A stretch of DNA of 64,000 nt from a virus (Duplodnaviria; Heunggongvirae; Uroviricota; Caudoviricetes), in IMG/VR virus record IMGVR_UViG_3300039208_000295; one strand, written 5' to 3'. Shown piece by piece: positions 2,045 to 2,118 of this stretch; position 1 is the stretch's first letter, and each line of letters opens with the position of its first letter. The translations under genes and the position numbers were made by a program. Below the pieces are notes generated by a model. The model was given only the letters and a program-made list of their open reading frames with translations. It was not told the origin of the DNA and made no database searches.

Positions 2045-2118
2045 GGCTCTGGGGCCCGTGAGGACGGGCAGTGGCCTCTAAAACCACTTTGTAGCGGGTT
2101 CGACTCCCGTCAGGGCCT
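2045..2118 (+). tRNA. tRNA with anticodon CUA (candidate amber suppressor)
   Basis: Acceptor ggctctg pairs with cagggcc (one G-U). D-arm gccc-gtgaggac-gggc. Anticodon arm gtggc-cTCTAaa-accac gives U33, C34 U35 A36, A37, with a C-A mismatch at 31-39. T-arm gcggg-ttcgact-cccgt. Discriminator U, with CCA encoded at 2119-2121. Confidence 0.5.

Follow-up and report, generated by a model that had tools for sequence, protein, structure and literature searches.

The cassette and its location

The stretch of DNA analyzed here, referred to as the window, is 64,000 nucleotides long and comes from a virus of the class Caudoviricetes (IMG/VR record IMGVR_UViG_3300039208_000295). A tRNA gene with the anticodon CUA (tRNA-CUA), a gene for a protein similar to the peptidyl-tRNA hydrolase Pth2 with TAG as its third codon, and a gene for a small basic helical protein lie on the same strand near the beginning of the window (Table 1). 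These three probably constitute a conserved cassette, in which the suppressor tRNA is functional and the synthesis of the hydrolase is gated by it. Loci carrying homologues of the PTH2-like gene, or related DNA, are designated by L-numbers (L001, L129, etc.).

Table 1. Positions of the cassette features in the window
Feature	Position	Strand	Basis and remarks
Amber-suppressor tRNA gene (tRNA-CUA)	2045..2121	+	ARAGORN; Rfam tRNA (33.8 bits); cloverleaf as minimum-energy fold; homologues in L007, L008, L009, and L065 with compensatory stem changes
Anticodon CTA of tRNA-CUA	2078-2080		
Discriminator U of tRNA-CUA	2118		
Encoded CCA of tRNA-CUA	2119-2121		
Shine-Dalgarno sequence GGAG	2762..2765	+	7 nucleotides upstream of the ATG of the PTH2-like gene; read from the sequence
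PTH2-like hydrolase gene	2773..3087	+	ATG AAA TAG, 101 sense codons, and TGA; translation, Pfam PTH2, AlphaFold/Foldseek, conserved early stop
In-frame amber codon (codon 3), proposed decoding site of tRNA-CUA	2779..2781	+	next base A
Third cassette gene, for a 113-amino-acid basic three-helix protein	3171..3512	+	directly downstream of the PTH2-like gene in 40/100 loci; AlphaFold

The PTH2-like gene

Gene callers report only the 84-amino-acid tail of the PTH2-like protein (P0001), and an exact-sequence look-up of this tail gave no match. The window protein matches Pfam PTH2 (PF01981) over profile positions 4-109 with 21.6 bits, below the cut-off of 23, and its score for the NCBIfam Pth2 equivalog is 13.8, with a cut-off of 126. 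A profile of 30 family members retrieved the Pth2 structure 2zv3 from PDB (E = 4e-7), and PF01981 matches 21 of these 30 members at E <= 0.01. The AlphaFold model has a predicted local distance difference test (pLDDT) score of 93, and Foldseek aligned it with 2zv3, 1xty, and 1q7s (archaeal Pth2 and human Bit1) with template modeling (TM) scores of 0.77-0.79 and a probability of 1.0. The protein is predicted to have the Pth2 alpha/beta fold.

The Lys of the G-K motif and the Asp of the D-A-G motif have a catalytic role in Pth2. In the profile alignment to 2zv3, the 'GK' motif aligns with Q-Q in the phage family, where the Lys position is occupied by a near-invariant Gln. The 'DAG' motif aligns with E-P-D, and the Asp position is an invariant Glu. 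The family is designated as PTH2-like because of this divergence from Pth2, seen both in the motif changes and in the sub-threshold scores. The PHROGs label of the family is unknown function, and one of its PHROGs, a 77-position profile, covers only the C-terminal part of the domain. The residues that are invariant in the family are intact in the window copy.

A homologue without an early stop, in L001, has an N-terminus of exactly equal length, so its start aligns with the window ATG at 2773. Both the alignment and the model place the early stop in the N-terminal tail, ahead of the first strand. Any inserted amino acid should thus be tolerated, which fits the diversity of the tRNAs described below.

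The amber-suppressor tRNA

The CUA tRNA is one of 23 tRNA genes called by ARAGORN in the first 30 kb of the window, and is 77 nucleotides long in this call. The Rfam covariance model RF00005 (Infernal) spans 2045-2118 (model positions 1-71; cut-off 29 bits, E = 1e-4) and places CUCUAAA as a 7-nucleotide anticodon loop. The gene was missed in a whole-window Infernal scan with default filters. The cloverleaf is the minimum-energy fold at -35.2 kcal/mol, although the fold energy is weak evidence alone (z = -1.75; 12 of 200 shuffled sequences were equally stable). The acceptor stem has 7 bp with one G-U, the T-loop is TTCGACT, and the anticodon loop at 2076-2082 reads C32 U33 C34 U35 A36 A37 A38, with U33 and a purine at position 37.

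A sequence-only reading of the window had proposed a tRNA fold with the anticodon CUA at 2045-2118, and ARAGORN, the covariance model, and the free minimum-energy fold agree on it. The acceptor stem, T-arm, and encoded CCA are read from the sequence as described there, and the 7-nucleotide loop with U33, C34 U35 A36, and A37 is the loop given by ARAGORN, the covariance model, and the sequence. When the loop is read with 9 nucleotides, an objection raised in the same reading, the same triplet stays central. An amber-interrupted PTH2 gene about 660 nucleotides downstream had also been claimed. The GGAG, the ATG AAA TAG, and an intact PTH2-like domain were confirmed, and the distance from the 3' end of the tRNA to the ATG is 652 nucleotides.

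Some departures from the usual structure were absent from that reading. Position 8 is G in place of U, the variable region has 6 nucleotides, and the D-arm can close to 6 bp with a 4-nucleotide loop. Of the nucleotides for tertiary interactions, the D-loop has its GG and the T-loop its TTCGA, position 8 is G, and positions 14 and 21 can pair to extend the D stem. The tRNAs of the relatives L007-L009 have U8. A C31-A39 mismatch beside the anticodon loop is common to the homologous tRNAs of L007 and L009, and is therefore a lineage feature and not decay.

When 27 cassette tRNAs were aligned, the consensus was a cloverleaf, with compensatory (double) changes in 20 of the 21 pairs. The tRNA is beyond chance, because dozens of other phages have homologous CUA tRNAs beside homologous genes. 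Judged from this comparison, tRNA-CUA is evidently real and under selection.

The nearest neighbours of tRNA-CUA among 324 other phage tRNAs did not agree on an amino-acid identity, and no close paralogue was found among them. The discriminator U73 may hint at Cys or Gly identity rules. Across the loci, the discriminator of the cassette tRNAs is U, A, or G, and none of these tRNAs has a close paralogue. An exact 43-nucleotide piece of tRNA-CUA had no match in viral contigs, and the scan for promoters and terminators gave nothing useful for this gene.

ARAGORN labels the gene 'Pyl', but this label stems only from the CUA anticodon, and identity with tRNA-Pyl was rejected. The anticodon and the loop CUCUAAA are common to tRNA-Pyl and the window tRNA. 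The hallmarks of tRNA-Pyl are a compact D-loop without GG, a 3-nucleotide variable loop, and a non-canonical T-loop, whereas the window tRNA has a canonical T-loop (UUCGACU), a GG-containing D-loop (GUGAGGAC), a variable region of 5-6 nucleotides, and a two-base link from the acceptor stem to the D stem. No match to pylS or pylBCD was found among the window proteins scanned, and the scan took in only part of the window open reading frames (ORFs).

Two tRNA-like elements flank tRNA-CUA. A degenerate element at 1972-2038(+), directly 5' of the gene, has recognizable D- and T-arm sequences, a bulged acceptor stem, and a 6-nucleotide 'anticodon' loop, and was called by neither ARAGORN nor Rfam. 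The other, at 2128-2252(+), scores 34.5 bits with the Rfam tRNA model with a 59-nucleotide insertion in the D-loop, and was not called by ARAGORN. It has 8 nucleotides where the 31:39 pair and a 7-nucleotide loop are expected. This element could be an interrupted tRNA or a pseudo-tRNA.

Conservation of the early stop among homologues

Homologues were collected from viral contigs with a small protein alignment (46 loci), from a metagenome scan, which added the 80 loci most similar to the query, and from cultured phages, which added more. A uniform pipeline of hidden Markov model search on frame translations and ARAGORN yielded 100 non-redundant PTH2-like domains. In 75 of them, an ATG, 1-8 sense codons, and a TAG directly precede the domain. 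Of the remaining 25, 2 have TGA as the early stop, 3-4 are ambiguous, and 19 have no early stop. The early stop is codon 3 in 51 of the 77 early-stop genes, and a Shine-Dalgarno-like 4-mer is found 4-16 nucleotides upstream of the ATG in 63 of the 77. There are almost no canonical starts between the stop and the domain in these genes; the commonest codon after the stop is GTA, and ATT follows it in 13. The early TAG is also present in the cultured jumbo phages ME3, GAP32, and BF. From this distribution, the early stop is evidently conserved and not a lesion.

Only 6 loci, mostly contigs of metagenome-assembled genomes, were found in a scan of bacterial genomes, and the PTH2-like family is thus essentially phage-borne. 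In GAP32 (L054/L061), Serratia phage BF (L056), RsoM2USA (L058), and ME3, the early-stop gene has no annotation, or its annotation is truncated or begins at an internal start. The missed or truncated gated gene looks like a systematic annotation gap. A different architecture is seen in jumbo phages of Xanthomonas and Stenotrophomonas (L053, which is XacN1 ORF364, L059, and L060). Their PTH2-like domain forms the C-terminal portion of a ~280-amino-acid protein with no early stop. In L050, the extra domain of these proteins is fused to the C-terminus of the PTH2-like domain instead.

Association of the suppressor tRNA with the early stop

In most of the 46 viral loci, a CUA tRNA adjoins the PTH2-like gene, and it is often the sole tRNA called by ARAGORN in 20 kb. 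Of the 75 TAG genes among the 100 homologues, 52 have a CUA tRNA in the fetched DNA, mostly less than 1.5 kb away. Both TGA genes are accompanied by an upstream UCA tRNA, at a distance of 129 nucleotides in L129 and of 4.6 kb in L010. None of the paired loci had the crosswise pairing (TAG with UCA, or TGA with CUA), and the exact probability of this match between stop type and anticodon, with the margins 52/0 and 0/2, is ~7e-4 (computed by hand).

The analysis of physical linkage was limited to the 47 loci in which the gene is flanked by 5.5 kb or more on either side. Suppressor tRNAs lie less than 1.5 kb from the gene in 26 of 30 cases, compared with 34 of 171 other tRNAs (Fisher p = 2e-12). 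In these loci, the tRNA is present in 27 of 35 with an early TAG and in 2 of 11 without it (p = 8e-4). Across the full set of loci, the suppressor tRNA is on the same strand as the gene, 0.1-1.2 kb upstream or ~0.7-0.8 kb downstream, and it is the only tRNA in 30 loci. The CUA tRNA still adjoins PTH2-like genes that have no early stop in L039, L042, L049, L145, and L146. This persistence of adjacency suggests that the PTH2-like protein and the tRNA may be functionally tied beyond gating. In L033, a tRNA with the ochre anticodon UUA (8755-8830) lies 1.2 kb upstream of a PTH2-like gene without an early stop.

The base following the early stop in the 77 homologues is G in 41, A in 30, C in 6, and T in none. 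T is the commonest base after the genuine stops of the window, and follows 7 of the 19 TAG stops. A U after the stop is a context of strong termination that lowers read-through (PMC5289835). The sequence context of the early stop probably favours read-through.

In the light of these comparisons, the early UAG of the PTH2-like gene is well supported as the likely conserved, cis-linked target of tRNA-CUA. The sequence-only reading mentioned the PTH2 gene as nearby context. It is nearby and contains TAG as stated, but is more than context: it is a conserved, dedicated partner of the tRNA across phages.

The third gene of the cassette

The third gene was found by all-against-all comparison of the ORFs located less than 3 kb from the PTH2-like gene. 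The family members are 90-125 amino acids long and are encoded immediately 3' of the hydrolase gene in the 40 non-redundant loci. They have the motif IKxLAxxQ...ITAxLNxYxxxRGxxxxH and a median isoelectric point (pI) of 9.7. The AlphaFold model of the third protein consists of three helices (pLDDT 94). No relative was found in Pfam, PHROG, NCBIfam, PADLOC, BFVD, or PDB, the last by sequence and by fold. The tail of ArfB ('tRNA hydrolase domain') was considered as a relative and rejected, as the PDB match was not significant (E = 0.33). Phage transfer-messenger RNA (tmRNA) genes lie beside the cassette in several unrelated loci (L027, 10925-11300; L039, 3449-3764; also L018 and L001).

Genetic code of the window and of related genomes

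The genes of the window are closely spaced, and its coverage by greedily chosen ORFs is 89.6% with the standard code and 90.7% with TAG open. TAG terminates 19 of the 96 ORFs, including a conserved GDP-mannose-dehydratase-like gene, in which the TAG precedes a Shine-Dalgarno sequence and the next ATG. In-frame extensions past the genuine TAG stops are not shorter than those past TAA or TGA (p = 0.82). All in-frame stops on the coding strands of the window were scanned, and only at 2773-3087 does an ATG with a Shine-Dalgarno sequence run into a stop within a few codons and continue as a long ORF that has no start nearby.

Related loci and the complete genome of one cultured phage give a similar picture. 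The median gain in coverage over 51 related loci of at least 12 kb is 2.5% with TAG open and 2.1% with TGA open. In L043 (IMGVR_UViG_3300026097_000012), the coverage rises from 67% with the standard code to 78% when TAG is opened, and codon 9 is the early stop of the PTH2-like gene. L043 may be genuinely TAG-recoded, the only such locus among the 51. The complete genome of Acinetobacter phage ME3 has an ORF coverage of 92.6% with the standard code and 92.5% with TAG open. ARAGORN calls five tRNAs in it, and the CUA tRNA lies ~0.45 kb upstream of the PTH2-like gene, which starts MT-TAG. TAG ends 33 of the 312 ORFs of ME3, the structural genes are intact, and same-frame ORF pairs split by one stop mirror the overall stop usage. 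The PTH2-like gene was the only one detected in the complete ME3 genome with an early stop behind a Shine-Dalgarno sequence and an ATG.

The standard code applies in the window, and there is no recoding beyond the PTH2-like gene within the window or ME3. The sequence-only reading had likewise argued against global reassignment, which is borne out by the ~1% gain in coverage, the common use of TAG as a terminator, and the single early-TAG gene in the window. It had put the share of genes ending in TAG at roughly a quarter; TAG is in use as a normal stop, but the share is ~20%.

Two other candidate sites were rejected. An apparent second in-frame TAG at 63707, on the minus strand, is a genuine stop, with a Shine-Dalgarno sequence and an ATG after it. 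At 11270-11285(+), an ATG and four codons are followed by TGA (11282) and then by a 230-codon open frame, in which the first canonical start lies 52 codons in. This TGA was dropped as a read-through site, since it has no Shine-Dalgarno sequence and the window has no UCA tRNA; the arrangement is probably coincidental.

Other features of the window

The phage is large, and encodes a ribonucleotide reductase, NAMPT, a DNA ligase, an RNA ligase, and a CCA-adding enzyme. Genes for RNA repair, tRNA maturation, and nicotinamide adenine dinucleotide metabolism are dense at 5591-9551, 19767-20852, and 31772-33109. This set includes the DNA ligase, a NUDIX protein, a cREC_REC response-regulator-like protein, NAMPT, the RNA ligase, and the CCA-adding enzyme. 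An 8-kb piece of the window had no megablast match among 50,697 phage records, and the best match of the DNA ligase is 38% identical, from Aeromonas phages. The window phage is evidently distant, at the sequence level, from cultured phages. Look-ups of the neighbouring proteins returned only identical copies from the same phage (SRR4039775 and SRR4039776), which carry no comparative information.

Two class-I tRNAs of the window are overlong, at 4359-4448 (Asn, 90 nucleotides) and 25416-25505 (Lys-UUU, 90 nucleotides), and the Lys-UUU tRNA scores only 35 bits in Rfam. Overlong tRNAs are also found in relatives (L007, L008, and L061), up to an annotated tRNA-Lys of 127 nucleotides in GAP32. Their lengths suggest that they carry insertions or introns. 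About 2 kb upstream of the window start, L002 has a 74-nucleotide tRNA (5455-5528) with the anticodon ACU, which ARAGORN labels 'Ser' in spite of the lack of a long variable arm. The anticodon ACU is odd for a bacterial system.

Proposed function of the cassette

The analysis establishes the fold and anticodon of the tRNA, the conservation of the early stop, the agreement of stop type with anticodon, the physical linkage, and the PTH2 fold; charging, actual read-through, and a role in feedback or clean-up are inferred. In the proposed mechanism, tRNA-CUA would be transcribed within the phage tRNA cluster, with its CCA already encoded, and charged by a host synthetase. Ribosomes would start at the ATG driven by the Shine-Dalgarno sequence, add one residue, and reach the UAG, in a termination-poor context with a purine following. 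If the release factor RF1 wins there, only a dipeptide would be released, and if the suppressor tRNA wins, the full hydrolase would be made. With the early UAG as the target of tRNA-CUA, the synthesis of the hydrolase would require the tRNA to outcompete RF1, and failure would cost only a dipeptide. The inserted residue could be of any kind, as the stop is in an unstructured N-terminal tail. The output of hydrolase would rise and fall with the activity of the suppressor relative to RF1.

Most likely, the cassette serves to couple a peptidyl- or aminoacyl-tRNA hydrolase to suppression. The hydrolase could act as a brake by cleaving the aminoacyl or peptidyl ester of the suppressor, as in RF2-like feedback. 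It could also serve for clean-up, clearing the peptidyl-tRNAs and stalled ribosomes made by suppression, with the basic partner as an adaptor.

A more specific version is conceivable, though rather unlikely. The cassette may be a self-regulating system of termination surveillance and ribosome rescue, in which the suppressor serves as a comparator against RF1 and the hydrolase is made when UAG termination is weak or suppression is high. The basic partner would guide the hydrolase to peptidyl-tRNA(CUA) or to ribosomes stalled after read-through, and the role of this three-helix protein would resemble that of ArfA or BrfA. If true, this would be a phage-borne, RF-independent release of peptides, with its expression wired to the event that it corrects, and it would explain the persistence of 'orphan' suppressor tRNAs in standard-code phages.

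Several observations weigh against gating of the hydrolase by the tRNA, or limit it. The window tRNA is atypical, with G8, the C31-A39 mismatch, and only 33.8 bits. A CUA tRNA is not in the fetched DNA for 23 of the 75 TAG genes, where many contigs are short, and the tRNA of GAP32 is 3 kb away. The share of early-TAG homologues (75%) is biased upward, because the metagenome hits resemble the TAG-bearing query, and it is ~65% in the unfiltered viral set. The search for TAG-interrupted genes covered the window, which is 64 kb of a genome of probably ~182 kb. The chemistry and substrate of the family may differ from those of Pth2, given the Lys to Gln change in 'GK'. Brake and clean-up both fit the data, which do not tell them apart, and the direction of the regulatory logic is conjectural. 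The sequence-only reading favoured low-level or regulated suppression; regulated suppression is the right frame, and the comparative data make it specific, with amber suppression and read-through in the window themselves inferred from comparative genomics only.

Alternative explanations

The suppressor tRNA could have a wider use than the PTH2-like gene. Its main job may be global, either the read-through of host UAG codons as sabotage or the countering of a host defence that targets translation, and the hydrolase and its partner would then be a safety or rescue device. The linkage of the cassette even without an early stop in the five loci listed above, the tmRNA genes abutting it in L027 and L039, the RNA ligase and CCA-adding enzyme of the window, and the basic partner all suit such a role. 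Strong suppression, however, would hit the phage's own proteins, because about a fifth of the genes end in TAG and the extensions past them are not shortened, and no defence-related family was matched. A global role is unlikely as the main explanation; it overlaps with the gating proposed here and does not exclude it. It is also conceivable that TAG is partially recoded (similar to code 15) in genes outside the window, such as late structural genes, and that the PTH2-like gene is just one of many TAG genes. Phages with suppressor tRNAs as a late-gene switch exist (bioRxiv 10.1101/2021.08.26.457843), only about a third of the genome was covered, and L043 looks recoded. Such recoding is nevertheless improbable, as TAG ends many window genes, the conserved dehydratase-like gene included, the gain in coverage with TAG open is small in the window, and the median gain over the 51 loci hardly exceeds that for TGA. 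The ME3 structural genes are intact with zero gain, and the tRNA adjoins the PTH2-like gene also in loci where 12-20 kb contain no other tRNA.

The tRNA could conversely be irrelevant or degenerate. ATG-AAA-TAG would then be a two-codon leader mini-ORF, with the hydrolase made by re-initiation at a non-canonical codon such as the ATT at 2794, or the gene would be a dead pseudogene. Two-codon minigenes, such as the lambda bar minigenes, provoke peptidyl-tRNA drop-off, which would suit a leader. The annotated starts of the database homologues P0002 and P0003 immediately precede the conserved (I/L)VRTDL strand, ATT follows the stop in some homologues, as noted above, and the window tRNA has a low score with G8 and the C-A mismatch. 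In most homologues, however, the stretch from the stop to the domain lacks ATG, GTG, and TTG, the codon that most often follows the stop is GTA, and the Shine-Dalgarno sequence belongs to the upstream ATG. TAG is paired with CUA and TGA with UCA in the neighbouring tRNA, a co-variation that a leader does not predict. A pseudogene is ruled out because the early stop is conserved in ~77 divergent lineages and the domain is intact. Taken together, a leader or a pseudogene is very improbable, and gating of the hydrolase by the suppressor tRNA is retained as the probable explanation.

Comparison with known systems

Stop-codon-recoded phages were reportedly the subject of work by Ivanova in 2014. 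In the recoded phages (crAss-like, Lak, Jade, and Agate, among others), phage genes contain a stop codon of the host that is read by a phage tRNA with the anticodon CUA or UCA, so that their expression depends on this tRNA; this was proposed to be a regulatory switch (bioRxiv 10.1101/2021.08.26.457843). This likeness to the cassette is limited. The recoded phages have dozens of mostly late or lytic genes with in-frame stops, low coding density under the standard code, and depletion of the stop as a terminator, whereas the window has the standard code, TAG as a normal terminator, and a single tRNA-adjacent gene with one stop at codon ~3. No hydrolase is mentioned by Borges et al. in the same preprint.

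The orphan suppressor tRNAs of the cultured jumbo phages XacN1, RsoM2USA, Atu_ph07, GAP32, and ME3 match the window tRNA in kind and occur in genomes of the same type. The authors of the XacN1 study could identify no target of the suppressor tRNA (PMC5852040). For RsoM2USA (PMC8504454) and Atu_ph07 (PMC6102473), targets were only guessed, or many UAG codons were noted. In the annotations of GAP32 and ME3, a 'Sup-tRNA' or 'tRNA-OTHER CTA' is found near the homologous PTH2-like gene.

The gene prfB, which encodes the release factor RF2, is autoregulated through an early in-frame UGA. The autoregulation of prfB is mentioned in PMC5289835. The cassette resembles it in having a conserved early in-frame stop in a gene for a translation factor, so that the output depends on the efficiency of termination. 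An early in-frame stop of this type, in a translation-related gene, was found in 77 of the 100 homologues, at codon 3 in 51. In the RF2 case, a +1 frameshift is used without a dedicated tRNA, and RF2 itself acts on the sensing codon, whereas in the cassette the suppressor tRNA is co-encoded.

The likeness to Pth2 (PF01981) consists of the common fold, with TM scores of 0.72-0.79, and the N-terminal motif R-x-D-L...Q..H-A. The differences are the scores of the window protein below the Pfam and NCBIfam cut-offs, the change of the 'GK' Lys to Gln, and 'EPD' in place of 'DAG'. GAP32 encodes a canonical PTH2 (GAP32_382) besides a member of the early-stop PTH2-like family. Iyer et al. (2021; PMC7824862) described PTH2 in jumbo phages and are silent on suppressor tRNAs or amber codons in phage genes.

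No prior description of a cassette of a tRNA and an early-stop hydrolase gene was found in the full-text-searchable literature, subscription-only papers being outside the search. While the tRNA itself is of a known kind, the cassette appears to be a new form of suppressor-dependent gene control. The suppressor tRNAs of standard-code jumbo phages, whose purpose has so far been unclear, gain a specific, conserved, and testable target. The cassette would be a compact natural circuit of a tRNA, an early-stop-gated gene, and a partner protein, found across very divergent phages, including cultured phages of Acinetobacter, Cronobacter, Serratia, and Ralstonia. If gating is true, the circuit would also lend itself to direct use in synthetic systems whose expression is gated by a suppressor. 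Should the hydrolase act on the suppressor or on the products of read-through, it would represent a new kind of translational feedback or quality control.

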